Below are positions 39,195 through 60,800 of a stretch of 64,000 nt of DNA, piece after piece. The DNA lies in the NCBI GenBank assembly GCA_965220965.1, contig OZ244852.1, forward strand, positions 1,152,001-1,216,000, read 5' to 3'. The notes beneath the pieces were generated by a model that saw only the letters and a list, made by a program, of their open reading frames with translations, was not told the DNA's origin and made no database searches. The DNA comes from Candidatus Marinacidobacterium sp. (GTDB taxonomy: Bacteria > Acidobacteriota > Vicinamibacteria > Marinacidobacterales > Marinacidobacteraceae). Within the stretch, counting starts at the first letter, position 1, and each line of letters begins with the position of its first letter. The position numbers and the translations under genes are program-made.

Positions 39195-40118
39195 TCAGTC
39201 CTGCTGCGACTCCCGGAACTCCGTGACCGCGCCGTGGAAGACGAAGAGCGCATCGCGGTCATCCGTCGGCGACTCGAAGTTGTAGGTCCGGCCACCCAGG
39301 ACCTTGAGCCGGAGGTTGTTCGCGATGTAATCGAACTCGAACGCCTCGACCTGCGCGAACGGAAGCTGGAAGGCGTCCCGGTGGTCCGTCCGGTAGTCGA
39401 ATCCCTCCGGACCGACATGGAGGACGCCGCTGCAGGACCCGAAGCGGTGCTTGTGGACCACTTCCACGTTGACATCCAGCGTCGCGGTCGGCGCGACCAG
39501 ATCGAAGCGCTCGCGCACCGGAGCGCGCTCGACATGGACCCGCCGGTTCTGGACCTCGTAGCCCTCGGCGGACACCGTGAGCCGGTATTCGCGGGGCTGG
39601 AGATCCCCGATGGTGACCGGCGCGTTGCCCTTGAAGTTCCGGTCGAGGAAGACCATCGCCCCGGGCGGGTTGGAGTCCACCACGATGGAGCCGAGCATCT
39701 CGGCCAGATCCACCGGCACGGAACGCGTCCGGCCGGCGCGGATCGTGATTTCGGCCTCGAACGGGTGGAAGTTCTCGCGCTCGACGCGGAGGTCGTGCGT
39801 TCCGGCGTCGAGGTCTTCCCAGCGTCCCGGGGCCGACCCCAGTTGGCGGCCGCCGAGGAAGACCATCGCGCCCTCGGCCCCGACGACTTCGAGCGCCCCG
39901 GTCGTGGGGGCTGGCGGCGGAGGCGGCCGCTCGGGGGCGTCCGGTTCGGGAGCCGGTTCCGGCTCGGCGGCGGCCGGCGCCTCGTCCACCGGCTCGGAGG
40001 CTGGCTCGTCCCCTCCCCCGCACCCGACGAGCAGGAACGCGCCGAAGAGCGCCAGAAGAAGCGCCGCCAGCCGCGCCGGCGCAGCGTGACTCGGGTGGGG
40101 CCACTGCATCGGAATCAC
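39195..40118 (-). CDS. PEGA-domain lipoprotein
   Basis: Lipobox LVGC, Pro-rich linker and two PEGA-like repeats (GSIVVDSNPPGAMVFLD). GTG start overlaps the upstream stop; ATG 40109 is an alternative. Confidence 0.75.
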   Translation of the reverse strand: MIPMQWPHPSHAAPARLAALLLALFGAFLLVGCGGGDEPASEPVDEAPAAAEPEPAPEPDAPERPPPPPAPTTGALEVVGAEGAMVFLGGRQLGSAPGRWEDLDAGTHDLRVERENFHPFEAEITIRAGRTRSVPVDLAEMLGSIVVDSNPPGAMVFLDRNFKGNAPVTIGDLQPREYRLTVSAEGYEVQNRRVHVERAPVRERFDLVAPTATLDVNVEVVHKHRFGSCSGVLHVGPEGFDYRTDHRDAFQLPFAQVEAFEFDYIANNLRLKVLGGRTYNFESPTDDRDALFVFHGAVTEFRESQQD

Positions 40119-40621
40119 GCCTCCAGCCGCCGGTAGCCCCGGTTCTGGTAGACGAGCGGCGCCGCGTCCGGCCGCTCGACGGCGGCATCGACGATGCGGC
40201 CGATGAAGAGCGTGTGGTCCCCTTCCCGGTGCGCCGACGCGACTTCGCAGTCCAGCCACCCGATGCAGCCGTCGAGGCGCGGGGGCGCGCCCTCCGGCGA
40301 CGACCCCTCCGCATGGGCGCCGGCGAACTGCTCTGCGCTCCCGAGGCCCGGCCGGGCGAAGTGGTTCGACACGTCCCGCTGGTCCTCTCCCATCAGGTGG
40401 ACCCGGAACCGGCCCGCGGCGATCGCCTCGTGGGCGCGCGCCTCCACCGCAATCGACACCAGGACGAGCGGCGGCTCGAGGCTCACCGAGACGAACGAAC
40501 TCACCGTGATCCCCCGCGGGCCGTCGGCGCCGCGGGCCGTCACCACCGTGACCAACTGGGGCGCCCGCCGCATGAAGTCGCGGAGCAGCTCGCCCGCATC
40601 CGGCGGCGTCGTCACCTGCAA
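40115..40621 (-). CDS. Flavin reductase-like (HpaC/DIM6-NTAB family) protein
   Basis: VTVVT...GITVSSFVSVSLEPPLVLVSI, GDHTLFIGRI and PLVYQNRGY motifs. Confidence 0.9.
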   Translation of the reverse strand: MQVTTPPDAGELLRDFMRRAPQLVTVVTARGADGPRGITVSSFVSVSLEPPLVLVSIAVEARAHEAIAAGRFRVHLMGEDQRDVSNHFARPGLGSAEQFAGAHAEGSSPEGAPPRLDGCIGWLDCEVASAHREGDHTLFIGRIVDAAVERPDAAPLVYQNRGYRRLEA

Positions 40622-40651
40622 GGCGTCACCCGCCGGAGACCCGGCCCCGGC

Positions 40652-41146
40652 TCACCCGGCGAGCTCGGTGAAGTCCGCGGCGTAGCTGACCGCCACGGCG
40701 CCGCGCAGCGTGTTCGCGAGCGGGCAGCCCCGCTCATGGAAGCGCAGCGCCCGTTCGGCGTCCTGGCGCTTTCCCGCCGGCAACCGCAGCTTGTAGCGGA
40801 TCCGGATGGCCCGGAGCGCCATGACCCCGTCCTCATCCACGATGTCGCCCTCGACATCGGCGGAGAGCCGGTCCGGCTGGCTCGGAATGCCGCGTGCTTC
40901 GAGCGCCCGCCCGAACGTGCCCAGCATTCAACCGCCGGTGGCGGCGACGACGTAATCGAGGGTCGCGGGAAGCTCCTCCGCCGGGGTCACGCCGTAGAAG
41001 GCCGCGATCCCGCTGTGGACCCCGAAGCGGACCGGCGTCTCGAAGTCCTCGAGGAAGGCCTGCCGCACCGGGCCGGCCTCCTTGACCACCCGCGCGTGGC
41101 AGGTGTGGACGACCCGCGCCGGACTCTCGCCGGCGGCCGGAGTCAA
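40652..41146 (-). CDS. Selenoprotein: OsmC/Ohr-like protein
   Basis: Two in-frame track ORFs are joined by UGA at 40928-40930: LDYVVAATGG-U-MLGTF, at the OsmC catalytic Cys position. A second Cys lies in HERGCPL. SECIS-like stem TTCGGGC-GGGC-GCTCGAA. Confidence 0.85.
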
Positions 41147-41709
41147 GGGGACTCCCCGAAGATGTCGGCGTGGAGCGCCTTGACCGGAGCCCCGCTGCCG
41201 GCCAGCGACAGGTCGAGGTCCAGCGTCGTGCTGGTCGGGGCGCTGCAGGCGTTGTCGGTGCAGAGCTGGTAGCGCACCAGCACCGAGGCGGCGGTTTTTC
41301 CCGAGGACTTCGAGGCGGCGGTCACCGGAATGCGGATCGCGACCTTGCCCTCGTAGAGATCGAACTCCCCGAGTCCCGAGAGGTCCCGGCGGATGGGCGC
41401 CGGGTAGTCGACCTCCCCGGCCTCGAACTCGGCGGGTTCGATGAGCTCCACGACGGTTCCCGTCGGGAACGGCTCCTCGGGACCGTAGAGGTGGTACCCG
41501 GGATCCAGTTCGGCCACGACCGCGACCTCGAACCGGTCCCCGGGGCGGATCGGTGACTGGGAGGCGACCAGCTCGAACCGCGCCGCGTTGTCCCAGTCGG
41601 GGATCTCGGGGATCTGCGCGGCCGCGCTCACCGGAACGAGCGCGAACGGCAGCACGAAGGGCAGCAGCCGGCGCCGGAGCGCAACGGCGGAGATGCGGGA
41701 AGAGGACAT
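41143..41709 (-). CDS. Exported DsbD N-terminal (alpha) domain-like protein
   Basis: Signal peptide, LDPGYHLYG, YEGKVAI and YQLCTDNAC (Cx4C) motifs; start at ATG 41709. Confidence 0.8.
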   Translation of the reverse strand: MSSSRISAVALRRRLLPFVLPFALVPVSAAAQIPEIPDWDNAARFELVASQSPIRPGDRFEVAVVAELDPGYHLYGPEEPFPTGTVVELIEPAEFEAGEVDYPAPIRRDLSGLGEFDLYEGKVAIRIPVTAASKSSGKTAASVLVRYQLCTDNACSAPTSTTLDLDLSLAGSGAPVKALHADIFGESP

Positions 41710-41726
41710 GAGCGTCGGACCTCCTG

Positions 41727-42323
41727 TCAGGAACCGGGCAGGCCGGCGATCTCGTCGAGGATCTCGCCCGGCGCGGTCCGGTCGCGGTAATTCACCCATA
41801 CGTTCACGAAGCGGACGACCCCTTCCCTGTCCACGATGATCGTGGCGGGGTGCGCGAGTCCCTCGCGCTCGGTGCCGTCATGGTCCGTGTTGCGGATCCC
41901 GTAGGCGGAGATCACGTCAGCCCCGTCCACCAGGATGGGAAAGCTCCAGTCGTTCTCGGAGAGCCAGGTCTGCGTCTCCGCGGCGTCGTACATCGAGATG
42001 CCGAGCACGGTGGCGTCCACCGACTCGAACCGTTCCAGGGACGTTTGCAGCTCGCCGAGCTGCGCCTTGCAGAATGGTCACCAACCGCCGCTGCGGAAGA
42101 ACTCGAGAACGACGGGGCCGCGTTCGACGAGCTCCGACAGCCGGTAGGCCGTCCCGTGGGCGTCCCGGAGTTCGAAGTCCGGGGCGGGCTGGCCGACCTG
42201 CACGGTCGAAGTCTCCATCCCCTGCGCCGCAGCGGAGGGGGCGAGACCCCATCCGAGGCCCAGCGTGAGAACGGCGATGGCGAGGCTACGCGCCACGAAG
42301 CCGGTAGCGGAGTTCGAGAGCAT
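41727..42323 (-). CDS. Selenoprotein: exported AhpC/TSA (peroxiredoxin-like) protein
   Basis: VGQPAPDFEL...PVVLEFFRSGGW-UGA(42078-42080)-PFC gives UxxC. The frame continues to HPATIIVDREGVVRF. SECIS-like hairpin GCAGCTC-GGC-GAGCTGC. Confidence 0.87.
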
Positions 42324-42410
42324 GGCGAACCGATTCTAGCATGTCGAACGCGGCGTTCCACCCCCGCGAAAGACGCGCCAAGTCATTGATATATGGCGAC
42401 TTACGGCGCA

Positions 42411-42426
42411 TGTCGGCGCGCCGACA
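42411..42426. promoter_or_regulatory. Perfect 16-bp palindrome TGTCGGCGCGCCGACA, candidate non-canonical parS
   Basis: Same length and TGT...ACA ends as canonical parS (TGTTTCACGTGAAACA); lies 9 nt beyond the parB stop. Confidence 0.5.
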
Positions 42427-42435
42427 CCGTCAGGA

Positions 42436-43314
42436 TCATCCGGAAGCGGAGCGATCCCCCGCTCCATCCCGCTCCGCGCCGTCGCCGCCACCGTCCCCCT
42501 GGTTCGATTCGAGCTGCCGGAGCAGGTCGCGCAGGGCGTCGATGACCTCGGTCTCCTCGACTTCGCTGCGCCGGAACGTCATGTGGAGACGGAACGGGCT
42601 TCCCTTGGGGGCGTACCGGAACACGAAGGGCCGCGCCCGCCCCCTGCCCGCCCGCTTGCGCTTCACCGGCGGCTCGCTCACCCCGGACGCGAGACGCTGC
42701 ACGCATTCGGCCATCGCCTCGGGCGTCGCCTCGCGCGCCACCCGCAGGAGCTGCCGGCGGGAGCGCACGCCGGCCGCCTGACACATCTCGCGGATCTCCG
42801 GGGGGATGTTGAGCAGCGCGAGGGACTCGGTGATGGAGGTCCGGGGTCGCCCGACCCGGCGCGACAGCGACTCGTGGGTGTGGCCGTGCTCCCGGATCAT
42901 CGCCTCGTAGGCGGCCGCCTCCTCGAACGGAGACAGGTCGTCGCGCAGGAGGTTCTCGACGATCGCGAGCTCGAGCGACTCCGCCTCGTCGGCGTCCCGC
43001 TCGACACAGGGGATCTCGCGCATCCCCACCTGGAGCGCGGCGCGGAAGCGGCGTTCCCCGGCGATTATCTGGAAGTCCTTCGGTCCGAGGCGGCGCACCA
43101 GGATGGGCTGCAGCAGCCCCTGCTCGCGGATCGATGTGGCGAGAGCCTCGAGCGACCCGATGCGCTGGCGGGGCTGGTCGGGGTTGGCGTGGATCTGGGC
43201 GACCGGGATCAGCCGGTGGCGGTTCGCCGGTTCGTCCGTGACCAGGCTGGCCACGTAGTGCCGGTCCCGCTTGCGCAGGCCGACCGCCTCAGGCAGACCG
43301 GTTCGCTTTGACAC
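42436..43314 (-). CDS. parB: ParB/RepB/Spo0J-family protein
   Basis: NPDQPR, GLLQPILVR, IIAGERRFRAA (CTP-binding motif), ENLLRDDLSPFEEA and an HTH region. Confidence 0.9.
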   Translation of the reverse strand: MSKRTGLPEAVGLRKRDRHYVASLVTDEPANRHRLIPVAQIHANPDQPRQRIGSLEALATSIREQGLLQPILVRRLGPKDFQIIAGERRFRAALQVGMREIPCVERDADEAESLELAIVENLLRDDLSPFEEAAAYEAMIREHGHTHESLSRRVGRPRTSITESLALLNIPPEIREMCQAAGVRSRRQLLRVAREATPEAMAECVQRLASGVSEPPVKRKRAGRGRARPFVFRYAPKGSPFRLHMTFRRSEVEETEVIDALRDLLRQLESNQGDGGGDGAERDGAGDRSASG

Positions 43315-44065
43315 GTTCGAGGACTTCCCCGGCGAGCCGCCGGTAGTCGTGAGCGCCGGCGGAGTCCGGCGCGAACGAAAAGATGGACTCCCGGTAGGCC
43401 GGACTCTCCTCCAGCCTCACGTTCCGCCGGACCTTCGCCCGGAAGGTGGCGGCGCCGAAGTGGGTCCGGATGCGGCGCACGGCGTCCTGCGAGATGCGCG
43501 TCCGGGCGTCATGCATGGTGATCGCCACCCCGAGCAGCGCCAGGTCCGGGTTCGGCCGGCGACGGATCTGCTCCACGGTGTCGAGCAGGTCGTCGGCGCC
43601 CTCGAGGGCGTAATAGGAAGGCTGCAGCGGGATCAGCAGGTAGTCGCTCGCGACCAGCGCGTTCACCGTGATGAGTCCCAGGGTCGGCGGGGTGTCGATC
43701 ACGATCAGGTCGAAATCGTCCAGGACGTGCTGGATCCGGTCCCGCAGCCGGTAGTGGGCGTCGATGTCGCCGAGCAACTGGCGCTCCAGCTTGGCGAGGG
43801 ATATGCGCGACGGCGCCATGGAGAGCCGCTCGATGGCGGTCGGGCGGATGATGTCAGCAAACCGCGCTTCCCCCGTCAGGGCCTCCAGCATCGAAGGCGC
43901 TTCCGGGTCCGGGTCGAGGTAGCTGACCGAGGCGTTCGCCTGCGGATCCAGGTCCACCAGCAGCGTGCGCTCGCCGGCCTGCGCGAACGCCGCCGCCAGG
44001 TTGACCGAGGTCGTGGTCTTGGCGACGCCGCCCTTCTGGTTCGCGACGGTGATCGTCGCTCCCAC
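43289..44065 (-). CDS. parA: ParA/Soj-family ATPase
   Basis: NQKGGVAKTT deviant Walker A, VDLDPQAN and IDTPPTLG motifs. Confidence 0.92.
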   Translation of the reverse strand: MGATITVANQKGGVAKTTTSVNLAAAFAQAGERTLLVDLDPQANASVSYLDPDPEAPSMLEALTGEARFADIIRPTAIERLSMAPSRISLAKLERQLLGDIDAHYRLRDRIQHVLDDFDLIVIDTPPTLGLITVNALVASDYLLIPLQPSYYALEGADDLLDTVEQIRRRPNPDLALLGVAITMHDARTRISQDAVRRIRTHFGAATFRAKVRRNVRLEESPAYRESIFSFAPDSAGAHDYRRLAGEVLERVKANRSA

Positions 44066-44081
44066 GCGCGCCTCCCCTTCC

Positions 44082-44579
44082 CTACTGGGAGTCGCCGAGG
44101 TCCTCGTCGTCGAGGGACTCCAGCCAGTCGGCGAGCGCCTCGCTGTCTTCCGGCGGCTCGCCGTCGGCGATCAGCTCGTCTCCGCTCTGGACGCTCCGCT
44201 CGATGACGCGGGCGTGGGCGTAGATCGGGGCGCGGGTGCGGAGCGCGATGGCGATCGCGTCGCTCGGGCGCGCATCGATCACGAGCCGCAGGCGCTTGCG
44301 CTCGATGTGGATGTGCGCGTAGAAGGTGTTCCGCCGCAGGTCGTGGATCACGACCTTCAGAACGCGGGCGTCCAGCTCGCGCAGCAGCTCGCGGATCAGA
44401 TCGTGGGTCAGGGGCCGCGGGGGCTCGTAGTTTTCGACCTGGAGGCCGATGGCGCGGCACTCGAGCGGCCCGACCCGGATGGGGAGCTCGCGGTTGCCCG
44501 GCTCCTCCTTGAGCATCACGACCGCCGAGTTGTCCCTCGGGAGCATGAAGATCGCCTTGATGCTCATCTCAACTTCCAT
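44082..44579 (-). CDS. Bifunctional nuclease family protein (DUF151)
   Basis: LPIRVG, PPRPLTHDL and IDARPSDAIAIALR motifs; start at ATG 44579. Confidence 0.9.
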   Translation of the reverse strand: MEVEMSIKAIFMLPRDNSAVVMLKEEPGNRELPIRVGPLECRAIGLQVENYEPPRPLTHDLIRELLRELDARVLKVVIHDLRRNTFYAHIHIERKRLRLVIDARPSDAIAIALRTRAPIYAHARVIERSVQSGDELIADGEPPEDSEALADWLESLDDEDLGDSQ

Positions 44580-46047
44580 CGCGCACTCCCTGGAACAACG
44601 AGGGCGCTCCACCGGCCAGCACCGGAAGCGGAATCTCCGGCTGCCGGCGGGACGGCGCGGCGAGCGTCGAAGCGGGTCGCTCCGGCGACGTGAGTTCGCC
44701 CCGGAGACTGTTGGGGCCGAACCCGGTGATGGCGACCCGGGCGAAGGCCCCGACGAGCGACGCCGGGCCCGGGAAGTTGACCACCCGGTTGTCCTCGGCG
44801 CGGCCCGCCAGGAAGTCGCCCCGGCGACTCGGACCTTCGACAAGAACCTCCACCTCGCGACCCACGAGCGCGGCGTGGAGCTCGAGCTGGATCGCGCGCT
44901 GCCGCGCCTGAAGCTCCATCAGCCGCGCGGTCTTCTCGCCGTCCGGCACATCGTCGGGCAGGCGCTTCACCGCGAGCGTGTGGGGCCGCTCGGAGTACTT
45001 GAAGGAATAGGCGGAAGAAAACCGGACTTCGTCGAGCAGGCTGAGCGTGTCCTCGAATTCCGCGCGGGTCTCGCCGCAGAACCCGACGATCAGGTCGGTG
45101 GAGAGCGCGAGGCCGGGCGCCTTCTCCCGGGCGTCCGTGACCAGCCGCAGGAACTCCCCGCGGCTGTAGCCGCGCCGCATCCGCTCGAGCACGCTGGTCG
45201 AGCCGGACTGCGCCGGGAGGTGCATGTGCGGCATGAGCGGACCGCCCGCGGCGAACCGCTCCATCAGCGCCGGGCTGAAGTCCTTCGGATGGGGGCTGGT
45301 GAACCGGATGCGGCGGATCCCCGAAACGGCGGAGACGGCGTCGATCAGCGCCGCGAAGTCCCGCCCGTCCTCCGGATCCCGGTAGGAGTTCACGTTCTGC
45401 CCGAGAAGCTGGATCTCGCGGAAGCCGTCGCCGGCGAGGGCCTCCGCTTCGCGGACGACCGACCCGACCGTGCGACAGCGTTCCCTGCCCCGGGTGAAGG
45501 GCACGACGCAGAACGAACAGAAGTTGTCGCAGCCCTCCATGATGGTGATCCACGCCTTGACGCCGGGGACGCGCTCGATCTGTTCCGGCGGGATGTCGAG
45601 GTTGTCGGCGTGGCGTCCGGTTTCCACGATCCGGGTCTCGCCGTCGAGCAGACGCCGCACGATCTGCGGAAGACGGACCAGCGCCTGCGTGCCCAGCACG
45701 AAGTCCACCGCCGGGGCGCGGGCGAAGATCGCCTCGCCTTCCTGCTGGGCGACGCAGCCGGCGACGCCGATCAGCAGCGGGCGCGAAGCCCGGGCGCGGC
45801 CCTTGCCGCCCACGAGCTGCTCGACCCGGGAAAACACCTTCTCCTGGGCTTTCTCGCGCACCGAGCAGGTGTTCAGCACCACGATCTCGCCGCCGGGATC
45901 GGCCTCTCCCCTCGCCGGGCGGGCGCCGAGCGACCCGAGCGCCGCCGCCATCTTCTCCGAGTCGTGGACGTTCATCTGGCAGCCCCAGGTCTCGATGCGG
46001 TATCGAAGACCGGGGTCGCCCGGCGAACGGTCCTGAGCGGGGGGCAT
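44569..46047 (-). CDS. miaB: tRNA-2-methylthio-N6-dimethylallyladenosine synthase
   Basis: TWGCQMNVHDSE, NTCSVREKA, radical-SAM CDNFCSFC and a C-terminal TRAM domain. Confidence 0.95.
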   Translation of the reverse strand: MPPAQDRSPGDPGLRYRIETWGCQMNVHDSEKMAAALGSLGARPARGEADPGGEIVVLNTCSVREKAQEKVFSRVEQLVGGKGRARASRPLLIGVAGCVAQQEGEAIFARAPAVDFVLGTQALVRLPQIVRRLLDGETRIVETGRHADNLDIPPEQIERVPGVKAWITIMEGCDNFCSFCVVPFTRGRERCRTVGSVVREAEALAGDGFREIQLLGQNVNSYRDPEDGRDFAALIDAVSAVSGIRRIRFTSPHPKDFSPALMERFAAGGPLMPHMHLPAQSGSTSVLERMRRGYSRGEFLRLVTDAREKAPGLALSTDLIVGFCGETRAEFEDTLSLLDEVRFSSAYSFKYSERPHTLAVKRLPDDVPDGEKTARLMELQARQRAIQLELHAALVGREVEVLVEGPSRRGDFLAGRAEDNRVVNFPGPASLVGAFARVAITGFGPNSLRGELTSPERPASTLAAPSRRQPEIPLPVLAGGAPSLFQGVRDGS

Positions 46048-46056
46048 GCCCGGACG

Positions 46057-47859
46057 TCAGGCTCCGGGAGTCCCGCCCGCGTCGGAAACCGCTTCCCGCG
46101 GCCGCGGCGGGTCGCCCGGCGACGCGGCGCCGCGCAGAAGGTCCCGGGCGTTATCGCGGGCGGCGTCCGTGACTTCGGGACCGGCGAGCATGCGGGCGAT
46201 CTCCTCGGTGCGATGCTCATCCCTGAGGTGGCGCACCCGAACCGAGCCGTCGGATTCTAGTTTTTCGACCCTCAGGTGGCGCCCCGCGAGCGCCGCCACC
46301 TGCGGCAGGTGGGTCACGCAGAGCACCTGCCGGCCGCCCGAGAGGCGACGGAGCCGCCGCCCCACCGCATCGGCGACCCGCCCGGAGGTCCCGGCGTCCA
46401 CTTCGTCGAACACCAGAGTCGGACCGCTCCCCTCCCCCGCCGCCGCGCGCCCGGCCCCGGCGGCCTTGAGCGCGAGGAAGAACCGGGACGACTCGCCCCC
46501 GGAAGCGACTTCGGCCAGCGGGGCCGGAGGGAGTTCGGGGTTCGCGCTGAAGCGGAACGCGACCCGGTCCCAGCCCTCGGCCGTGAAGCGGTCAGAAGGA
46601 GGTTCGTCGAAGGACCCGTCCGCGGGCGCCGGGCGAGGATCCAGCCGGATCTCGAAGCGGGCCTTGGTCAGCCCCAGCCCGGGCAGCTCCGCCAGGACCG
46701 CGGCCGAAAGCTCCAGGGCGGCCTCGCCCCGCGCCGCGCTCAGTTTCCAGGCCGCCCGCCGATAGGAGGCCGCCGCCTCCTCGACCGCGGCGGCGGCTTC
46801 GGCGCGCGCCGCTTCCCGGCGCCCCAGCGAGGCCAGTTCGGTGCGGATCTCCTCGGCGCGCGCCAGCAGCGCCTCGGCGCCGCCCGCGCCCGCGGTGTGG
46901 CGACGCTCGAGCCGCCGCAGGAGCGCCAGCCGGTCCTCGATCCAGGCGAGGCGCTCCGGACCGGCGTCGATCTCCGCGCGCCGGTCGCGGACGGCGGCGG
47001 CGAGATCCTCCACCTCGGCCACCAGGTCGGGACGCCCCTCCAGGAGGGCGGCGGTGGCCGGATCGATCCCGGCGACCGCCTCCAGTTCGCGGAGAGCGGC
47101 GGCGAGCTGCGCGCCGGCGGCGCGGTCCGAACCGTAGAGCGCCTCCCAGGCGGACCCGAGCCCTTCGAGGAGCCGCTCGCTCCGACCCAGGACGGTGCGC
47201 TCTTCGAGCAGCGCCTCCTTCTCGCCCGGTTCGGGCGCGGCGGCCTCGATTTCGCGGAGCGCGGCCTCGAGGGCGCGCCGGTCTTCGCCCGGGGTCGCAT
47301 CGCCGGCCAGCGCCTCGGCGCACGCCATCGCCTCGCGCAACCGCTGGTGCGCGGCGCGGACTTCCGCGAGCTCCCGGTGGTGGCCGCCCGCCCCGTCGAC
47401 CGCCTCCCGCGCGGCCCCGGGGCGCAGGAGCGCCAGGTGCTCCCCCTGCCCGTAGACCTCGGCGAGAAGCGCGCCGACGCGCCGCAGCGCGCCGACCGGG
47501 ATGGCGCTCCCGTTGAGTGATGCGCGGCTCACGACCGTCCGCCCTCCGGGACCCGGCCGCAGCACGCGCCGGATCACCAGTTCGCCGTCCTCCACCGGAA
47601 CGCCGGCCTCGTCGAGCGCCTCCGAAAGAGACCCCGCACGCGAAGCGGGCGCCTGGAACCCGGCTTCGACCACCGTGCGGTCGCCGTGGGGACCGATCTG
47701 CCGGGCGCGCCCGCGGGCCCCGAGCGCGAGCCCGAGCGACTCGAGGAGGAGGCTCTTCCCCGCCCCGGTCTCGCCGGTGAGGACGTGGAGACCCTCGTCG
47801 AACTCGACGGAGACATCCCGCAGGAGCGCCAGGTTCCGGACGCGGAGCCAGAGGAGCAT
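46057..47859 (-). CDS. recN: DNA repair protein RecN
   Basis: LTGETGAGKS, ASGGESSR, FDEVDAG and QVLCVTHLPQVAA motifs. Confidence 0.93.
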   Translation of the reverse strand: MLLWLRVRNLALLRDVSVEFDEGLHVLTGETGAGKSLLLESLGLALGARGRARQIGPHGDRTVVEAGFQAPASRAGSLSEALDEAGVPVEDGELVIRRVLRPGPGGRTVVSRASLNGSAIPVGALRRVGALLAEVYGQGEHLALLRPGAAREAVDGAGGHHRELAEVRAAHQRLREAMACAEALAGDATPGEDRRALEAALREIEAAAPEPGEKEALLEERTVLGRSERLLEGLGSAWEALYGSDRAAGAQLAAALRELEAVAGIDPATAALLEGRPDLVAEVEDLAAAVRDRRAEIDAGPERLAWIEDRLALLRRLERRHTAGAGGAEALLARAEEIRTELASLGRREAARAEAAAAVEEAAASYRRAAWKLSAARGEAALELSAAVLAELPGLGLTKARFEIRLDPRPAPADGSFDEPPSDRFTAEGWDRVAFRFSANPELPPAPLAEVASGGESSRFFLALKAAGAGRAAAGEGSGPTLVFDEVDAGTSGRVADAVGRRLRRLSGGRQVLCVTHLPQVAALAGRHLRVEKLESDGSVRVRHLRDEHRTEEIARMLAGPEVTDAARDNARDLLRGAASPGDPPRPREAVSDAGGTPGA

Positions 47860-51809: not shown

Positions 51810-54800
51810 GTGAGCCCGAGACTCCATAGCCCCGGACGCTTCGCGCGCGCCGCGCGCGCTGGCTGGATCGCGCTCCTTCCGCTGCTGGCGCCCGCCATCG
51901 CGCCCGCTATCCCATCCGGCCTTGACGGGTCTGCGGCGACAGCGGTCGCCGCCCAGACGCTGGTGGCCCCCGACGCCCCCGGCAGCTTCACCGCGACCGC
52001 GGGCGACACCGAGGTTTCGCTCACCTGGACGGCGCCGACGAACACCACGGTCGACAGCTTCCAGATCCGGCACAAGCTGACCTCCGCGGCCAGCTTCGGA
52101 AGCTGGAACTCTGTGGGCGGCGGCGGAACCACGACGAGCCACACCGTCACCGGTCTCCTGAACGGGATGGGCTACACGTTCGAGGTCCGGGCGGTGAACA
52201 GCGCCCACAACGGCCTCGCGGCCCTGGCGATGGCGACCCCGCAGTTGCCGGCGCCAGACCCTCCCGGGGACTTCCACGTCTACCGGGGCAACGCCAGGGC
52301 ATGGATGGACTGGGAAGCCCCGACAAATACGAGCGAGATCAACCGCTTCGAGGTCCGCTACCGGACCGCCGAGAGCTGGCCGACCCCTGCGGGGCCCTTC
52401 ACGAACTGGGAGGAGGTCTTCGGCGGCGGAGCGGCCAACAACCACGAGATCACCGGACTTACGAACGGCGTCTACTACGAAGTCGAGTTGCGGGCGGTGA
52501 ACGACACCGGAAACAGCGCAGCCGTAAGGGCATACGTGACTCCCATCGCCGGCGGCCAGCGGACCACCCGGCCGGACATCACCGCGCTGACGCCGGGAAA
52601 CCAGCAACTGACCCTCTCGTGGAGCTGGACGGACGACACCGGAGGGCTCTGCGTCGCCGGCCCAGGGGAAATTTTCGGCTGGGAGATCGAGTACCGGAAA
52701 ACCGGATTGGCGTGGCAACCCACCTGGTTGGAGATGACGAATACCGCGGATGCGGGGGTCTTCAGCATCTACGGCATGGCCAGCCTGAGGACCTTCGTGC
52801 TGGGCCCTTCGTCGAGTGGCCAATATGCCCATGAGATCGGGGTCGCTCTGGATCCGGTGGAGTATCAGGTGCGGATGGCGGCGGTGGCCTCCGCCTGCGA
52901 AGACCTACCCAACTTCAACAACAGCGCGCACTCCGCCACCTGGTCCACGACCCTGGCGGCGGCCCCCGACGCGCCCACCGGCCTCACCGCAACAGCCGGA
53001 GACACCACCGTCTCGCTGAGCTGGGCGCCTCCCACGAACGTCACCAACATCACCCGCTTCGAGCTTCGCTACGGCGCCGCGGGAAACCTCGGGAACTGGA
53101 GCACGGTCTCGGGCGGGGGAGCCGCCAACAGCGAGATCGTCACCGGGCTCACGAACGGAACCCTCTACACCTTCGAGGTGCGGGCGGTGAACCCCGCCGG
53201 AGAAGGCCCTGCGGCCACGACGACCGCGACGCCGACGCCGCCGCCGCCCGATGCGCCGGGTCTGAGCGCGACGCCGGGCGACACGAAAGTGACGCTGAAC
53301 TGGACGGCGCCGACGAACACGACGGACATCGACAAGTACCAGTTCCAGTACCGGACGAGCCCGAGCGGGGCGTGGGTCACCTGGGCGGACGTGGCTGGCG
53401 GCGGGACGGCGTCGAGCCAGGAGGTGACCGGGCTGACGAACGGGACGGCCTACGACTTCGAGGTGCGGGCGGTGAACGCCGGGGGCAACGGTGCGGCCGC
53501 CCAGGTGACGGCGACGCCGAACCCGCCGATCCCCGAGGCTCCGGGTCTGAGCGCGACGCCGGACGACACGAAGGTGACGCTGAACTGGACGGCGCCGACG
53601 AACACGACGAACATCGACAAGTACCAGTTCCAGTACCGGACGAGCCCGAGCGGGGCATGGGTCACCTGGGCGGACGTGGCTGGCGGCGGGACGGCGTCGA
53701 GCCAGGAGGTCACCGGGCTGACGAACGGGACGGCCTACGACTTCGAGGTGCGGGCGGTGAACGCCGGGGGCAACGGTGCGGCCGCCCAGGTGACGGCGAC
53801 CCCGAACCCGCCGCTGCCCGAGGCGCCGGGTCTGTCTGCGACGCCGGACGACACGAAGGTGACGCTGAACTGGACGGCGCCGACGAACACGACGAACATC
53901 GACAAGTACCAGTTCCAGTACCGGACGAGCCCGAGCGGGGCGTGGGTCACCTGGGCGGACGTGGCTGGCGGCGGGACCGCGTCGAGCCAGGAGGTCACCG
54001 GGCTGACGAACGGGACCGCCTACGACTTCGAGGTGCGGGCGGTGAACAGCGGGGGCAACGGTGCGGCCGCCCAGGTGACCGCGACCCCGAACCCGCCGCT
54101 GCCCGAGGCGCCGGGTCTCACGGCGACGCCGGACGACACGAAGGTGACGCTGAACTGGACGGCGCCGACGAACACGACGAACATCGACAAGTACCAGTTC
54201 CAGTACCGGACGAGCCCGAGCGGGGCGTGGGTCACCTGGGCGGACGTGGCGGGCGGCGGAACGGCGTCGAGCCAGGAGGTCACCGGGCTGACGAACGGGA
54301 CCGCCTACGACTTCGAGGTGCGGGCGGTGAACAGCGGGGGCAACGGTGCGGCCGCCCAGGTGACGGCGACCCCGAACCCGCCGCTGCCCGAGGCGCCGGG
54401 TCTCACGGCGACGCCGGACGACACGAAGGTGACGCTGAACTGGACGGCGCCGACGAACACGACGAACATCGACAAGTACCAGTTCCAGTACCGGACGAGC
54501 CCGAGCGGGGCGTGGATCACCTGGGCGGACGTGGCGGGCGGCGGGACGGCGTCCACCCAGGAGGTGACCGGGCTGACGAACGGGACCGCCTACGACTTCG
54601 AGGTGCGGGCGGTGAACAGCGGGGGCAACGGGGCGGCCGCCCAGGTGACGGCGACCCCGAACCCGCCCGCGCCCGAGGCGCCGGGTCTCACGGCGACGCC
54701 GGACGACACGAAGGTGACGCTGAACTGGACGGCGCCGACGAACACGACGAACATCGACAAATACCAGTTCCAGTACCGGACGAGCCCGAGCGGGGCGTGG

Positions 54801-57800
54801 GTCACCTGGGCGGACGTGGCGGGCGGCGGGACGGCGTCCACCCAGGAGGTCACCGGGCTGACGAACGGGACGGCCTACGACTTCGAGGTGCGGGCGGTGA
54901 ACGCCGGGGGCAACGGGGCGGCCGCCCAGGTGACGGCGACGCCGAACCCGCCGCTGCCCGAGGCGCCGGGTCTGAGCGCGACGCCGGACGACACGAAGGT
55001 GACGCTGAACTGGACGGCGCCGACGAACACGACGAACATCGACAAGTACCAGTTCCAGTACCGGACGAGCCCGAGCGGGGCGTGGGTCACCTGGGCGGAC
55101 GTGGCTGGCGGCGGAACGGCGTCCACCCAGGAGGTCACCGGGCTGACGAACGGGACCGCCTACGACTTCGAGGTGCGGGCGGTGAACAGCGGGGGCAACG
55201 GTGCGGCCGCCCAGGTGACGGCGACCCCGAACCCGCCGCTGCCCGAGGCGCCGGGTCTGAGCGCGACGCCGGGCGACACGAAGGTGACGCTGAACTGGAC
55301 GGCGCCGACGAACACGACGAACATCGACAAGTACCAGTTCCAGTACCGGACGAGCCCGAGCGGGGCGTGGATCACCTGGGCGGACGTGGCTGGCGGCGGA
55401 ACGGCGTCCACCCAGGAGGTCACCGGGCTGACGAACGGGACGGCCTACGACTTCGAGGTCCGGGCGGTGAACGCCGGGGGCAACGGGGCGGCCGCCCAGG
55501 TGACGGCGACCCCGAACCCGCCCGCGCCCGAGGCGCCGGGTCTCACGGCGACGCCGGACGACACGAAGGTGACGCTGAACTGGACGGCGCCGACGAACAC
55601 GACGAACATCGACAAGTACCAGTTCCAGTACCGGACGAGCCCGAGCGGGGCGTGGGTCACCTGGGCGGACGTGGCTGGCGGCGGGACGGCGTCGAGCCAG
55701 GAGGTGACCGGGCTGACGAACGGGACCGCCTACGACTTCGAGGTGCGGGCGGTGAACAGCGGGGGCAACGGTGCGGCCGCGCAGGTGACCGCGACCCCGA
55801 ACCCGCCGCTGCCCGAGGCGCCGGGTCTCACGGCGACGCCGGACGACACGAAGGTGACGCTGAACTGGACGGCGCCGACGAACACGACGAACATCGACAA
55901 GTACCAGTTCCAGTACCGGACGAGCCCGAGCGGGGCGTGGGTCACCTGGGCGGACGTGGCGGGCGGCGGAACGGCGTCGAGCCAGGAGGTCACCGGACTG
56001 ACGAACGGGACGGCCTACGACTTCGAGGTCCGGGCGGTGAACGCCGGGGGCAACGGTGCGGCCGCCCAGGTGACGGCGACCCCGAACCCGCCGCTGCCCG
56101 AGGCGCCGGGTCTGTCTGCGACGCCGGACGACACGAAGGTGACGCTGAACTGGACGGCGCCGACGAACACGACGAACATCGACAAGTACCAGTTCCAGTA
56201 CCGGACGAGCCCGAGCGGGGCGTGGGTCACCTGGGCGGACGTGGCTGGCGGCGGGACGGCGTCGAGCCAGGAGGTGACCGGGCTGACGAACGGGACCGCC
56301 TACGACTTCGAGGTGCGGGCGGTGAACGCCGGGGGCAACGGGGCGGCCGCCCAGGTGACGGCGACCCCGAACCCGCCGCTGCCCGAGGCGCCGGGTCTCA
56401 CGGCGACGCCGGGCGACACGAAGGTGACGCTGAACTGGACGGCGCCGACGAACACGACGAACATCGACAAGTATCAGTTCCAGTACCGGACGAGCCCGAG
56501 CGGGGCGTGGGTCACCTGGGCGGACGTGGCGGGCGGCGGGACGGCGTCGAGCCAGGAGGTGACCGGGCTGACGAACGGGACGGCCTACGACTTCGAGGTC
56601 CGGGCGGTGAACAGCGGGGGCAACGGTGCGGCCGCCCAGGTGACGGCGACCCCGAATCCGCCGGCGCCGGATGCACCCAGCAGCTTCATTGCGACGGCGG
56701 GGGATGCCGAGGTTGCCCTGAGCTGGACGGCGCCGACGAACGCGACGATCACCGGGTTCGAGGTGCGCCACCGGGCGACGACCGGGGGGAGCTTCGGGAA
56801 CTGGGATCCGGCGGGCGGGGCCACGGCCACCAGCCACACGGTGACGGGGCTGGCGAACGGGACGGACTACACGTTCGAGTTGCGGGCGGTGAACGCCGGC
56901 GTGGAGGGTCTCGCCGCCACCGCGACCGCGACGCCCCTCCTCCCCGCGCCGCGGTTCTTCTACGCGACGGGGGGAGACACCCTAGTCGTGCTGAACTGGG
57001 GGGCGCCGGTTACCACCAGTCCGATCACGGGCTACGAATACCGCTACCGGAAGAGTTCAGCGACGATCGAGGGAACGTGGACCACGGTGCCGGGCGGAGC
57101 CTCCGTCAGCACGGAGCTCGTCAGAGGCCTGGAGAACGATACGGAATACACGTTCGATCTACGCGCCGTGAACGGGGCTTTCGCCACGGATAGGACCGAG
57201 CCAGGACTGGCGACGCCGGCCCCTCCGGACAACTTCACCGCGACGCCGGGCGACAGTGCGGTCGGGCTGAGCTGGGCCATCCCCCCGGCGAACATCAGTC
57301 AGATCACCGGCTATCAGGTCCGCCACAAGGTGACGAACGGCGGGAGCTTCGTGCCCTGGGACCTGGTGTTCGGCGGCGCGAACGCCAGGAACACCACGAT
57401 CACCGGCCTGACGAACGGGACGAACTACACGTTCGAGGTACGGGCGCAGAACCCCGTGGAGGACGGCCTCCCAGCCACCACGACCGCGACGCCGACGCTG
57501 GGGGGGAACCAGGCGCCGACGGTGGTGGGGACCGGGATCGACGACCAGACCGTCGCGGCGGGAGCGACGAAGGCCGTGACGCTCGCCGGCGCGTTCAACG
57601 ATCCGGACGGCGACAACAACGACCTGACCTACTCGGCGGTTTCGGGCGACCCGACGAAGGCGACCGTCTCGGTCAACGGGACTTCGCTGACGATCACCGG
57701 GGTCGCGATGGGGACCGCGACGGTCACGGTGACCGCCACCGATACGGGCGGTCTGTCGGCGACCGACTCGTTCACAGTGACGGTGTCCGGGACGAACCAG

Positions 57801-60800
57801 GCGCCGACGGTGGCGAACCCGATTGCGGACCAGGCCCTTGTCGCGGGAACCACCCGTTCCGTGGGGCTTATCAGCGTGTTCAGCGATCCCGAGGGCCAGC
57901 CGCTGACGTTCGCGGCCAGTTCGGATGACCCCGCGCTGGCGACCGTGTCGGTGAGCGGGACCACGCTGACGATCAACGCGGTCGCTGCGGGGACACCGAT
58001 GGTCACCGTGACGGCGACCGATCCGGGCGGTCTGTCGGCCACCGACACATTCACGGTGACGGTCTCCGGGACGAACCAGGCGCCGACGGTGGTGGGATCC
58101 GGGATCGCGGATCAGACCGTCACCGTGGGAGCCTCGAGCGACGTGTTGCTTGCCGGCGTCTTCAGCGATCCCGAGGGCCAGCCGATGACGCTCACGGCCG
58201 TTTCGGGTGACACCGCGAAGGCGACCGTCTCGGTCAGCGGGACGACCCTGACGATCTCCGGGCTGACCGTGGGCACAGCGACCGTCACGGTGACGGCCAC
58301 CGATCCGGGCGGCCTGTTTGTCACCGACTCCTTCACGGTGACGGTCTCGCCGGCGAACCAGCCGCCGACGGTGGTGGGGACCGGGATCGACGACCAGACC
58401 GTCGCGGCGGGAGGAACGACGGACGTGACGCTCGCCGGCGCGTTCAACGATCCGGACGGCGACAACAACGACCTGACGTACTCGGCCGTTTCGGACGACC
58501 CGACGAAGGCGACGGTCTCGGTGAGCGGGACAACCCTGACGATCAACGGGGTCGCGATGGGGTCCGCGATGGTCACGGTGACCGCCACGGATCCGGGCGG
58601 CCTGTCGATCACCGACACGTTCACCGTGACGGTGTCCGGGACCAACCAGCCGCCGACCGTGGTAGGCACGGGGATCGACGACCAGACCGTCGCGGCGGGG
58701 GCGACGACGGCCGTGACGCTCGCCGGCGCGTTCAACGATCCGGACGGCGACAACAACAAGCTGACGTACTCGGCCGTTTCCGGCGCCACCGCGCAGGCGA
58801 CCGTCTCGGTAACCGGGACGACGCTGACGATCGCCGGGGTGGCGATGGGGACGGCGGTGGTCACGGTGACCGCCACCGATCCAGGCAACCTGTCGGCCAC
58901 CGACACGTTCACGGTGACGGTGTCCGGAACCAACCAGCCGCCGACGGTGGTAACCGGGATCGCGGATCAGACCGTCACCGAGAGAACGTCGGTCGACGTG
59001 GATCTCGCCGGCGTGTTCAGCGATCCGGAGAGTCAGGCGCTGACGTTCGCGGCGACTTCGAACGCCACCACGACGGCGACCGCCTCGGTAAGCGGGACGA
59101 CCCTGACCATCTCCGGGCTCACTGTGGGCACAGCGATGGTCACTGTGACCGCCACCGATCCGGGCGGCCAGTCGATCACCGACTCCCTCACGGTGACGGT
59201 CGCGGCAGTGCTCCCCGGCCCGCCGATCATTACCAACGTGTTAGGGGCCGACTGGTCGGTCAGGATGTCGTGGGACAACCCCACGAACACCAGCGAGATC
59301 ACCAGCGCCCAGTTCCGTTGGCGCGAAACCAGCTCGATGAACTGGCCCAACTGGGGGGCTAAGTTTGTTCCCCTGCCGTCCGGAAACTCCGCCTTGATCC
59401 CCCTACCGAACGGGATCAGTCACACGATCCAGTTGCGGGTATCGAACAGCGCGGGTGACGGCCCACCCGCCACCTTTAGCGGGACACCAGTGAACTCTCC
59501 GCCGGTGGTGGATAACCCGATCCCGGACCAGACGGTGACGGTGGGTGGGATGACGGACGTTGCGCTCGACGGCGTGTTCGGCGATCCCTCGGGCCTCCCG
59601 GTGACGCTCGCGGCTGTTTCGGGGGACCCCTCGAAGGCCACCGTCTCGCTGACCAAGACAACGCTGCCGCTCCGCGGAGGAGACGCGAAGCTGAGGATCA
59701 CCGGAGTGGCGGTGGGGACGGCAACGGTCGCGGTGACCGCCACCGACACTGACGGCGCGCCGGTCACCGACTCGTTCACGGTGACCGTCGAGGGCGCCCC
59801 CGAGGCGCCGGGCAGTCTGAGCGCGACGCCGGACGACACGAAGGTGACGCTGAACTGGACGGCGCCGACGAACGCGACGATCATCGACAAGTACCAGTTC
59901 CAGTACCGGACGAGCCCGAGCGGGGCGTGGATCACCTGGGCGGACGTGGCGGGCGGCGGGACGGCGTCGAGCCAGGAGGTGACCGGGCTGACGAACGGGA
60001 CCGCCTACGACTTCGAGGTCCGGGCGGTGAACGCCGCGGGCAACGGGACGGCCGCCCAGGTGACGGCGACCCCGAACCCGCCGCTGCCCGAGGCGCCGGG
60101 TCTCACGGCGACGCCGGACGACACGAAGGTGACGCTGAACTGGACGGCGCCGACGAACACGACGAACATCGACAAGTATCAGTTCCAGTACCGGACGAGC
60201 CCGAGCGGAGCGTGGATCACCTGGGCGGACGTGGCGGGCGGCGGAACGGCGTCGAGCCAGGAGGTGACCGGGCTGACGAACGGGACCGCCTACGACTTCG
60301 AGGTGCGGGCGGTGAACGCCGGGGGCAATGGTGCGGCCGCCCAGGTGACCGCGACCCCGAACCCGCCGCTGCCCGAGGCGCCGGGTCTGAGCGCGACGCC
60401 GGACGACACGAAGGTGACGCTGAACTGGACGGCGCCGACGAACACGACGAACATCGACAAGTACCAGTTCCAGTACCGGACGAGCCCGAGCGGGGCGTGG
60501 GTCACCTGGGCGGACGTGGCTGGCGGCGGAACGGCGTCCACCCAGGAGGTGACCGGGCTGACGAACGGGACGGCCTACGACTTCGAGGTGCGGGCGGTGA
60601 ACGCCGGGGGCAACGGTGCGGCCGCGCAGGTGACGGCGACCCCGAACCCGCCGCTGCCCGAGGCGCCGGGTCTCACGGCGACGCCGGACGACACGAAGGT
60701 GACGCTGAACTGGACGGCGCCGACGAACACGACGAACATCGACAAGTATCAGTTCCAGTACCGGACGAGCCCGAGCGGGGCGTGGGTCACCTGGGCGGAC

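Follow-up and report, generated by a model that had tools for sequence, protein, structure and literature searches.

Does the chromosome of an acidobacterium carry a second partition system at its terminus? To our knowledge, active partition machinery is normally found only at origins. The window analysed here, a 64-kb stretch of contig C1 from a Candidatus Marinacidobacterium species (Vicinamibacteria, Acidobacteriota; genome size 3.25 Mb), holds a parA-parB pair 3.3 kb from a dif site, with a perfect palindrome just past the parB stop codon. Our data suggest that it probably encodes a second ParABS, distinct from that of the origin, with its centromere at the replication terminus.

Locus, terminus and origin

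As the earlier note on this DNA described, the genes recN, miaB, a nuclease gene, parA and parB are packed on one strand, all five on the minus strand. The features of the locus are as follows.

38920-39100, no strand: array beside dif, made up of inverted copies of its left arm, read from the sequence
39100-39127, plus strand: dif, chromosome dimer-resolution site, with two 11-bp arms and a 6-bp spacer
42411-42426, no strand: parS2, perfect 16-bp palindrome TGTCGGCGCGCCGACA, candidate ParB2 centromere, sole perfect copy in the genome
42436-43314, minus strand: parB2, ParB-family protein of 292 aa, paralogue of ParB1 (Pfam ParB_N 2e-26, HTH_ParB 1.8e-15)
43289-44065, minus strand: parA2, Soj-type ParA ATPase of 258 aa (Pfam AAA_31 4.4e-55)
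44082-44843, minus strand: ORF with a bifunctional nuclease domain (BFN; Pfam BFN_dom 4.3e-36, ORF residues 109-217)
44569-46047, minus strand: MiaB-type radical-SAM methylthiotransferase gene (Pfam UPF0004, Radical_SAM, TRAM)
46057-47859, minus strand: recN-like gene, 600 aa (weak Pfam SMC_N and AAA_23 matches below cut-offs; name taken from the earlier note)

The listed BFN ORF is probably overlong, and its true start is likely to be further downstream. The stretch around parB2 and dif is not misassembled: contigs of two runs from two studies each span positions 38000-46100 unbroken, with no difference in the first run, which may be the source sample, and two in the second. This removes the concern, raised at the outset, that the assembly might be wrong between 39 and 42 kb.

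The dif site, which had been placed close to the parAB pair from the sequence, is real. Its 27-mer has no second occurrence in the genome even at up to six mismatches, and it lies at C1 position 1191100, 0.5 kb from the peak of the cumulative skew of the FtsK-orienting motif GGGNAGGG at C1:1190556. This motif occurs 244 times forward and 81 times reverse over 0-1.2 Mb, and 50 times forward and 156 times reverse over 1.2-2.1 Mb. A motif-agnostic 8-mer screen returned the same motif, with the switch at 1182176. An FtsK gamma domain and two XerD-like recombinases are encoded in the genome. Neither plain GC skew nor the strand bias of genes marked an origin or a terminus clearly in this genome.

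A separate parAB does lie near the origin, beside dnaA and rsmG (gidB), in the cluster gyrB-dnaN-dnaA / rnpA-yidC-rsmG-parA1-parB1 at C1:2.39-2.40 Mb, 1.2 Mb from parA2-parB2. ParB1 carries a ParB_C domain, and a near-canonical parS with two mismatches is located just upstream of parA1. The whole genome contains six matches to canonical parS at up to three mismatches, none of them inside the 64-kb window, in agreement with the first impression that canonical sites are missing there. In relatives, canonical parS is unique per genome and adjoins parA1B1; G002, G014 and G036 have it without a mismatch and G150 with one, and the genome search did not find it in G133. The dnaA-dif arc of our own genome amounts to only 0.42 of contig C1, or 0.37 if C2 is part of the same replicon, and we count this short arc and the unclear GC skew and strand bias against the reading of the locus as a terminus centromere.

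Conservation of the ParAB2 pair

Of 40 relatives in the order, 38 have ParB2, and so do 89 of the 151 Acidobacteriota sampled. The search found no ParB2 in the remaining 62, and the system is therefore dispensable in many lineages. In single-contig genomes parB2 lies 0.45-0.50 genome lengths from dnaA/parB1. With exact lengths, the shorter arc is 0.47 of the chromosome in G113, G150 and G036 and 0.48 in G133; it is 0.46 in G006, 0.47 in G018 and 0.50 in G014, and about 0.46-0.49 in G002, G005, G007, G010, G011, G015 and G031, whose sizes are rounded. The pair is found next to dif, about half a chromosome from dnaA, at family, order, class and phylum levels, and not at random with respect to dif. 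Within the family, about 3.2-3.5 kb separate dif from the parS2 that adjoins the 3' end of parB2 in each of the ten loci of sufficient length, and an array of inverted dif-arm copies similar to ours occurs in loci L041, L043 and L048. Among 20 loci sampled across the phylum, dif follows the parB2 stop by 14-750 bp in ten and lies 3.5 and 7.4 kb from parB2 in two further ones; with a looser pattern, two more loci have dif-like sites, 0.9 and 6.3 kb away. The strict and looser patterns used here revealed no dif-like site within 9 kb in the other six.

The neighbouring genes are also retained. BFN is directly upstream of parA2 in 16 of the 20 phylum loci, and the MiaB-type gene keeps its synteny. 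Upstream of miaB, recN occurs in 5 of 20 ParB2 loci and in three of five loci lacking ParB2. Judged by its sequences, ParB2 is a distinct, old clade that contains all 21 of the 21 ParB2 proteins in our tree (SH-aLRT 100, stem length 1.63). Four of its sub-groupings reappear among the ParB1 sequences of that tree. This mirroring points to vertical descent, and the conservation of parAB2 across Acidobacteriota is read in the same way.

ParB2 retains both the GERR motif and the HTH first noticed in it. In an alignment of 20 ParB2 sequences, GERR, E120, N121, R124 and D126 (GERR and ENLxRxDL boxes) are invariant, as are R158, T162 and E163 of the recognition helix, E163 being replaced by N in the ParB1 of the same genome. 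The N-terminal peptide also differs, reading RGLP..MRHDxHxVEEL in ParB2 versus RGLGRGL at the start of ParB1. The predicted fold of ParB2 agrees with ParB and Noc structures, its best PDB matches being Spo0J, ParB and Noc (1vz0, 7bnk, 6t1f), and ends in a strand-strand-helix C-terminal domain. Since the Pfam ParB_C model gives no match to ParB2, for which the only further Pfam match beyond ParB_N and HTH_ParB is a weak one to TrmB, C-terminal dimerisation is suggested by the predicted fold. ParA2 matches ParA/Soj structures over its full length (8ray, 1e-55; 1wcv, 5e-53) and shares 39% identity with ParA1 of its own genome. Our genome has two oddities of its own, ENLLR in ParB2 and a ParA2 Walker A motif that reads KGGVAKT, compared with KGGVGKT in 19 orthologues.

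A palindrome confined to the terminus

The parS2 palindrome had been reported 9 nt past the parB stop, and nucleotides 42427-42435 do separate it from the stop codon at 42436-42438. Because perfect 16-nt palindromes are not rare in this genome (271 in total), its significance comes from comparison across genomes. All 13 of the 13 family loci have the pattern TGTCGGCNNGCCGACA without a mismatch, and 17 of the 20 phylum loci have it at up to one mismatch, either adjoining parAB2 or within it; the palindrome is conserved. Its recurrent places in the phylum loci are inside parB2, where it is in frame and codes for C-R-x-A-D-I/V, upstream of parA2, and just past the stop. Genome-wide, 20 further ParB2-carrying genomes (about 97.6 Mb) contain 23 perfect copies, all within 77 kb of parB2 and 18 of them within 4 kb; counts for G002, G006, G007, G014 and G018 are taken from a 1-mismatch search. 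A reversed-pattern control gave no match in any of the 0-mismatch genome searches, and no copy of TGTCGGCNNGCCGACA was present in the five ParB2-lacking genomes searched. Three of the 20 carriers (G113, G079, G010) lack a perfect copy, and G113 has versions with one mismatch. Two perfect sites bracket dif in G018 and G014, and G150 has five sites, the outermost lying 53 kb from dif in one direction and 77 kb from it in the other. The two site types, canonical parS and TGTCGGCNNGCCGACA, are each restricted to one of two opposite poles of the chromosome, as the proposed clustering at the terminus had predicted. The palindrome behaves like a private centromere of ParB2, although a centromere is indistinguishable from an operator in most genomes because these have a single parS2.

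We also considered a chance G+C-rich palindrome or a hairpin at a transcript end, unrelated to ParB2. The abundance of perfect 16-nt palindromes and the extension of the site to 24 nt with differing outer bases in two relatives, as a hairpin might show, would fit such an origin. However, the same 14 specified bases recur beside parAB2 in different classes although the DNA around them is unconserved, TGTCGGCNNGCCGACA recurs inside coding sequence, the pattern occurs nowhere else genome-wide, and no terminator-like site was found at 42411-42426. The genome-wide maps rule this reading out, and we give it practically no weight.

A 13/16 match at 38491-38506, on the other side of dif, exists as the earlier note stated, but does not stand as a second site. 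It overlaps the start codon of a CitMHS transporter gene (36713-38491), and three matches at up to three mismatches in the window are at chance level (shuffles give a mean of 2.15, and 35 of 100 reach at least 3). A perfect site lies 232 or 519 bp beyond dif in two of ten family loci, and the match could at most derive, by decay, from a site of this kind.

Possible roles and known systems

ParB2 and parS2 might serve as a terminus organiser or as an accessory of Xer/FtsK or SMC with no partition motor, pairing or condensing sister dif regions, or loading, blocking or unloading SMC, while ParA2 only regulates assembly. The short distance of 14-750 bp between dif and parB2/parS2 in half of the phylum loci, the bracketing of dif in G018 and G014 and the conserved recN and nuclease neighbours would all suit this role. 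It is nevertheless unlikely, as ParA2 is a complete Soj-type ATPase that is better conserved across the phylum than ParB2 (51-57% versus 37-47% identity) and accompanies parB2 in 19 of 20 loci, as expected of a working ParA-ParB motor pair. MipZ-ParB of Caulobacter and PomXYZ of Myxococcus are division-site regulators, and the pair could likewise use the terminus as a landmark, with ParA2 acting on FtsZ and not on DNA movement. MinC_C was found in none of the 151 sampled Acidobacteriota, our genome included, which would leave room for such a regulator. However, ParB2 was not found in 62 of these same MinC-lacking genomes and hence is not the general septum solution of the phylum, and ParA2 best matches Soj/ParA (1e-55), with only 6.3e-11 for Pfam MipZ; we regard a division-site role as improbable.

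A remnant of a domesticated plasmid or Xer-integrated element at dif, with the palindrome only an autoregulatory operator and no present chromosomal role, is more doubtful still. The cassette lies exactly between BFN and dif, and in three of the five ParB2-lacking genomes BFN is directly upstream of dif, the order recN-miaB-BFN being followed by dif 120-250 bp on, just as insertion at dif would give; some parS2 sites also fall upstream of parA2. Against this, the genome has a single dif-like site, the G+C content around the cassette resembles that of the remainder of the window, all catalytic motifs of ParB2 are kept across the phylum, and the ParB1-like sub-groupings speak for vertical descent. 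An operator role also fails to explain sites inside or after parB2 and, in G150, those on either side of dif at distances of up to 77 kb. An ancient plasmid origin of the cassette is possible and compatible with a second ParABS at the terminus.

The locus shares its components and parA-parB operon order with chromosomal ParABS systems (Soj/Spo0J-parS of Bacillus and Thermus, ParAB-parS of Caulobacter and Myxococcus), including N-terminal CTP-binding motifs and an HTH in ParB2, a Soj-type ParA2 and a 16-bp palindrome beside or inside parB. In B. subtilis, a parS also lies inside spo0J. Unlike these systems, ParAB2 is located at dif and not near oriC, shares its replicon with a canonical origin system, has a changed recognition helix and ParA-contact peptide, and is paired with a site that has only the outer TGT/ACA in common with canonical parS. 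ParAB2-parS2 of Vibrio cholerae chromosome 2 and other multipartite sets are likewise second systems with their own site specificity in one cell; they serve the origin of a separate replicon, whereas here both systems are on one contig at opposite poles. Noc, the ParB paralogue of Firmicutes, also has a re-specified palindromic site and is among the best structural matches to ParB2. With the NCBIfam Noc model, ParB2 reaches 152.8 bits, below the cut-off of 315. Noc has been described as binding many sites that avoid the terminus; in contrast, genomes with ParB2 have one to five sites, all at the terminus, and ParB2 has its own ParA. MatP-matS, which organises the enterobacterial Ter macrodomain, and the XerD-bound terminus sites of B. 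subtilis are sequence-specific and confined to the terminus region around dif, as ParB2 sites are, but ParB2 belongs to an unrelated protein family, and those systems are not known to have an ATPase partner.

The second ParABS with its own specificity put forward in the earlier note is thus supported by the separate origin parAB, the terminus-only TGTCGGCNNGCCGACA sites and the conserved link to dif. In the mechanism we infer, ParB2 would load at its private palindrome parS2 (TGTCGGCNNGCCGACA) and spread over flanking kilobases as other ParB clamps do. In most genomes the ParB2 complex would then take in dif, since its distance from parB2/parS2 is 14 bp-3.5 kb. ParA2 would recognise a partner peptide unlike that of ParB1 and move or position the terminus complex on the nucleoid. 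Most likely this would resemble plasmid ParABS: a lone copy would be kept at mid-nucleoid, the place at which FtsK and XerCD work on dif, and once replication and dimer resolution are over the two copies would be pushed apart. We found no published description of a ParAB2-parS2-dif unit in the literature searched. With a docking site of its own sequence beside the end of replication, ParAB2 may position or organise the terminus, and would represent a partition system outside the usual place at the origin.

The two ParAB pairs and their proteins

The genome consists of two contigs (3.25 Mb, about 72% G+C), and its named relatives are metagenome-assembled genomes of the Vicinamibacteria (Acidobacteriota). 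On contig C1, of which the window occupies positions 1152001-1216000, dnaA lies at C1:2.395 Mb within the classic cluster gyrB-dnaN-dnaA / rnpA-yidC-rsmG-parA1-parB1, and a parS with two mismatches is located directly upstream of parA1. Since this canonical parA1-parB1 cluster sits at dnaA, the pair in the window is a second ParAB, 1.2 Mb from dnaA, here termed parA2-parB2. An earlier note, made from the sequence alone, had raised the question of a separate canonical parAB near dnaA/gidAB, which the rsmG-parA1-parB1 cluster with its near-canonical parS now answers. It had also seen no canonical parS; we likewise find none inside the window, and the canonical site is found at parA1B1 instead. 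In four of five genomes checked, canonical parS is single in the genome and adjoins parA1B1.

The genes around the second pair are as follows.

46057-47859, minus strand, recN, one of five tightly packed genes
44569-46047, minus strand, MiaB-type radical-SAM gene
44082-44843, minus strand, ORF for a nuclease with a bifunctional nuclease (BFN) domain, upstream of parA2
43289-44065, minus strand, parA2, a Soj-type ATPase with Walker A motif KGGVAKT
42436-43314, minus strand, parB2, with ParB_N and HTH_ParB domains and a GERR box

The packing of all five genes on one strand (42436-47859) and the retention of the GERR motif and helix-turn-helix in ParB, both described in the earlier note, hold up. 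The N-terminal ParB/Srx domain of ParB2 (ParB_N, 2e-26) contains the GERR box for CTP binding (G86, E87, R88 and R89), whose residues are unchanged in 20 ParB2 sequences, as are E120, N121, R124 and D126 of the second nucleotide box (ENLLRDDL in the window's ParB2 versus consensus ENLQRKDL). The central helix-turn-helix (HTH_ParB, 1.8e-15) has a recognition helix in which R158, T162 and E163 are unchanged across the same number of sequences; it differs from that of the genome's own ParB1 by E163 in place of N and SKS in place of RAAAAR. ParB2 also carries a distinct N-terminal motif, RGLP..MRHDxHxVEEL, which is conserved and ParB2-specific and may represent a ParA2-contact region. The Pfam ParB_C model matches ParB1 and gives no match to ParB2. 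The AF2 model of ParB2 (mean pLDDT 84.4) predicts a confident C-terminal strand-strand-helix at residues 230-275, with block pLDDT values of 93-95 over 231-270. The closest solved structures are those of Spo0J, ParB and Noc, and superposition with Caulobacter ParB (6t1f) gives a TM score of 0.76, normalised to the target. Judged by its sequence, with GERR domain, second nucleotide box and helix-turn-helix, ParB2 is a probable member of the ParB/Spo0J clamp family.

ParA2 is 39% identical to ParA1, and its residues 1-253 match the ParA/Soj structures 8ray (1e-55) and 1wcv (5e-53). Its Walker A motif reads KGGVAKT here versus KGGVGKT in 19 orthologues and fits the deviant form KGGxxK[ST]. This motif, together with the full-length likeness to Soj, points to a chromosomal-type ParA/Soj protein.

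Conservation of the pair and its place beside dif

Full-length ParB2 orthologues (E 1e-73 or better) are encoded in 38 of 40 relatives of the same order; the two others are a 73%-complete genome and one with a fragment only. The order relatives each also have ParB1, which is about 40% identical to ParB2. Of 151 sampled Acidobacteriota, 89 have a ParB2-type match at E 1e-40 or better, and 146 match ParB1 at E 1e-25 or better. These tallies take in three unpublished genomes (G033, G064 and G089), and no claim depends on these three alone. A quick IQ-TREE analysis, with SH-aLRT values but without bootstrap, unites the 21 ParB2 sequences in a single clade (SH-aLRT 100). Four ParB2 subgroups have counterparts among the ParB1 sequences, a pattern that speaks for descent that is old and vertical.

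Where a genome is assembled as a single contig, parB2 and dnaA/parB1 are separated along the shorter arc by 0.45-0.50 of the chromosome. The values are 0.47 in G113, G150 and G036 and 0.48 in G133 (exact lengths), 0.46 in G006, 0.47 in G018 and 0.50 in G014, and about 0.46-0.49 in seven further genomes with rounded sizes. The window's genome is an outlier at 0.42 of C1. Orthologous parAB2 loci are placed non-randomly, beside dif and nearly opposite dnaA, in agreement with what the earlier note expected.

Neither plain cumulative GC skew nor the strand bias of genes predicted with a home-made caller shows a clear origin or terminus in this genome; oligomer skew was used instead. An 8-mer skew screen with no preset motif chose CCCTGCCC, the complement of GGGCAGGG, with a switch at position 1182176 of C1. 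The FtsK-orienting motif GGGNAGGG occurs forward:reverse at 244:81 over 0-1.2 Mb and at 50:156 over 1.2-2.1 Mb, and its cumulative count peaks at 1190556, 0.5 kb from a 28-mer at 39100-39127 of the window that has the dif layout of two arms and a six-base spacer. With up to six mismatches allowed, the dif 27-mer has no second match in the whole genome. Also encoded are an FtsK gamma domain and two XerD-like recombinases, the latter with matches (322 and 300 bits) just below the model cut-off of 329.6. A unique site at the point of motif convergence, in a genome with FtsK gamma and two Xer proteins, identifies 39100-39127 as the dif of an XerCD-FtsK system. Misassembly between 39 and 42 kb, a concern of the earlier note, is ruled out by contigs from two runs in two studies that span 38000-46100 unbroken; one of the two runs may be the source sample.

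At 38920-39100, adjoining dif, the left dif arm (CTTCCGATAA/G) recurs in three inverted copies that form hairpin-like palindromes; comparable arrays are present in the family loci L041, L043 and L048 and absent from six others. The plus strand of 52000-64000 has a strong A-over-T and G-over-C skew, and around C1:1.20-1.25 Mb most of the signal in the k-mer skew screen comes from repeated oligomers of the GACGAAC family, which together suggests very large repetitive genes. The second contig, C2 (363 kb), has about twice the GGGNAGGG density of C1, with motifs converging on a point of its own near 155 kb, and yielded neither a ParB_N match nor a dif-like site. Possible explanations for C2 are a replicon of its own, foreign sequence in the bin and an artefact of assembly.

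Linkage of parAB2 to dif extends across the phylum. All 10 family loci long enough to include it have dif 3.2-3.5 kb past the palindrome at the parB2 3' end. Among 20 phylum-wide loci, a dif-like site is found 14-750 bp past the parB2 stop in 10 and at 3.5 and 7.4 kb in two more. This strict pattern missed eight loci. A looser one recovered two of them, with sites on the opposite strand at 0.9 and 6.3 kb; the remaining six have no dif-like site within 9 kb under either pattern. In three of five complete genomes that lack ParB2 (loci L112, L113 and L114 of G152, G128 and G176), recN-miaB-BFN is followed by dif 120-250 bp on, while the dif candidates of the other two (G076 and G044) have no miaB or BFN nearby. 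It follows that the parA2-parB2 cassette sits exactly between BFN and dif, and that the nuclease gene and recN are conserved dif neighbours across the phylum even without ParB2. From gene order, the arrangement could reflect an ancient capture at dif or a clean loss.

In the window's family, the 3.3 kb between parB2 and dif hold redox genes and others. An AhpC/TSA-redoxin-like gene (41727-42323, minus strand) has an in-frame TGA at 42078-42080, reading GGW-U-PFC; because the TGA falls at the first Cys position of WCxxC, the gene is a candidate selenoprotein. Both tRNA-Sec (C1:2736891-2736987) and selA (492 bits) are present in the genome. An OsmC-like gene (40652 to about 41110, minus strand) with an in-frame TGA at 40928-40930, reading ATGG-U-MLG upstream of the Pfam-matched part, is a candidate for a second selenoprotein in the same 3-kb stretch.

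A palindrome specific to the second pair

The perfect palindrome TGTCGGCGCGCCGACA, termed parS2, is located at 42411-42426, nine bases past the parB2 stop. The genome contains 271 perfect 16-mer palindromes, so a single one is not rare and the case for parS2 rests on comparison with other genomes. A 13/16 match at 38491-38506, which the earlier note pointed out on the other side of dif, is present at chance level only: in 35 of 100 shuffles the number of matches was as high. In each of the 13 family loci, the 3' end of parB2 has a perfect copy, which in one genus (g2) lies within the end of the ORF. Across the phylum, 17 of 20 loci contain TGTCGGCNNGCCGACA with one mismatch or none, at three recurrent positions: in frame inside parB2 (C-R-x-A-D-I/V), in the BFN-parA2 spacer and directly past the stop. 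No terminator-like feature was found at parS2.

In 20 further genomes with ParB2 (about 97.6 Mb), searched in full, there are 23 perfect sites, all within 77 kb of parB2 and 18 within 4 kb; three of the genomes have none. In G150, five sites span 130 kb with dif in between, and in G018 and G014 sites likewise lie on either side of dif. The reversed-pattern control gave zero matches in the genome-wide searches at 0 mismatches, and the pattern is absent from all five ParB2-lacking genomes searched. Clustering of the palindrome at the terminus, anticipated in the earlier note, is therefore observed, with perfect sites genome-wide only near parB2 and dif. This distribution makes parS2 the likely cognate palindrome and a candidate ParB2 binding site.

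Proposed partition at the terminus

ParABS systems are regarded as origin machinery, and handling of the terminus is assigned to unrelated proteins such as MatP and FtsK or taken to be passive. Our comparison shows that one chromosome carries two ParABS sets at its opposite poles, that each set has a site of its own and that the second is fused to dif. Canonical chromosomal ParABS recognizes a near-universal parS and is origin-proximal; in contrast, the ParB2 system has no canonical parS in the window and a changed recognition helix, and it lies far from dnaA, beside dif. ParB2 scores 152.8 bits with the NCBIfam Noc model, against a cut-off of 315, and falls outside the Noc family. Noc has many binding sites, which avoid the terminus, whereas ParB2 sites number 1-5 per genome, all at the terminus. 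A literature search, with subscription journals largely outside its scope, returned nothing on terminus-proximal ParABS or on ParABS in Acidobacteria.

We infer that ParB2 binds parS2 and spreads over dif, with ParA2 acting on the terminus. Our preferred mechanism would be plasmid-like positioning and separation of the terminus by ParA2 and ParB2. A more far-reaching reading, to which we give slightly less than even odds, is that many Acidobacteriota have two different centromeres that cannot stand in for each other, the first at the origin and the second built around dif, with both poles driven by ParABS. The terminus complex would enclose dif, hold it at mid-nucleoid for FtsK/XerCD and then part the resolved sister termini. 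The complex could also take part in signaling the site and time of division to the cell, in a phylum that yielded no MinC.

It is unlikely that parAB2 is instead a terminus, Xer or SMC organizer. A role as division regulator, quite improbable in our view, would fit the finding of the MinC C-terminal domain in none of the 151 sampled Acidobacteriota versus 6 of 14 control genomes; with MinC in none of them, a correlation with ParB2 is impossible. That the cassette is a domesticated relic we consider very improbable. A Xer-integrated mobile element or integrated plasmid was rejected on account of the single dif-like site (up to six mismatches) and the mirroring of ParB1 by the ParB2 subgroups; an ancient capture of the cassette is possible, given its exact place between BFN and dif.

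The same parAB2 system is present in order-level relatives whose genomes measure 5-9 Mb, which makes the claims for ParA2 and ParB2 directly testable. The second ParB/parS pair, non-canonical and with a defined 16-bp site, could serve as a labeling tool. A conserved ParABS with its centromere next to dif would be a natural experiment in which a partition motor is placed at the last-replicated locus. It would bear on the separation of two ParABS systems that share a replicon and on the coupling between dimer resolution, terminus segregation and division.
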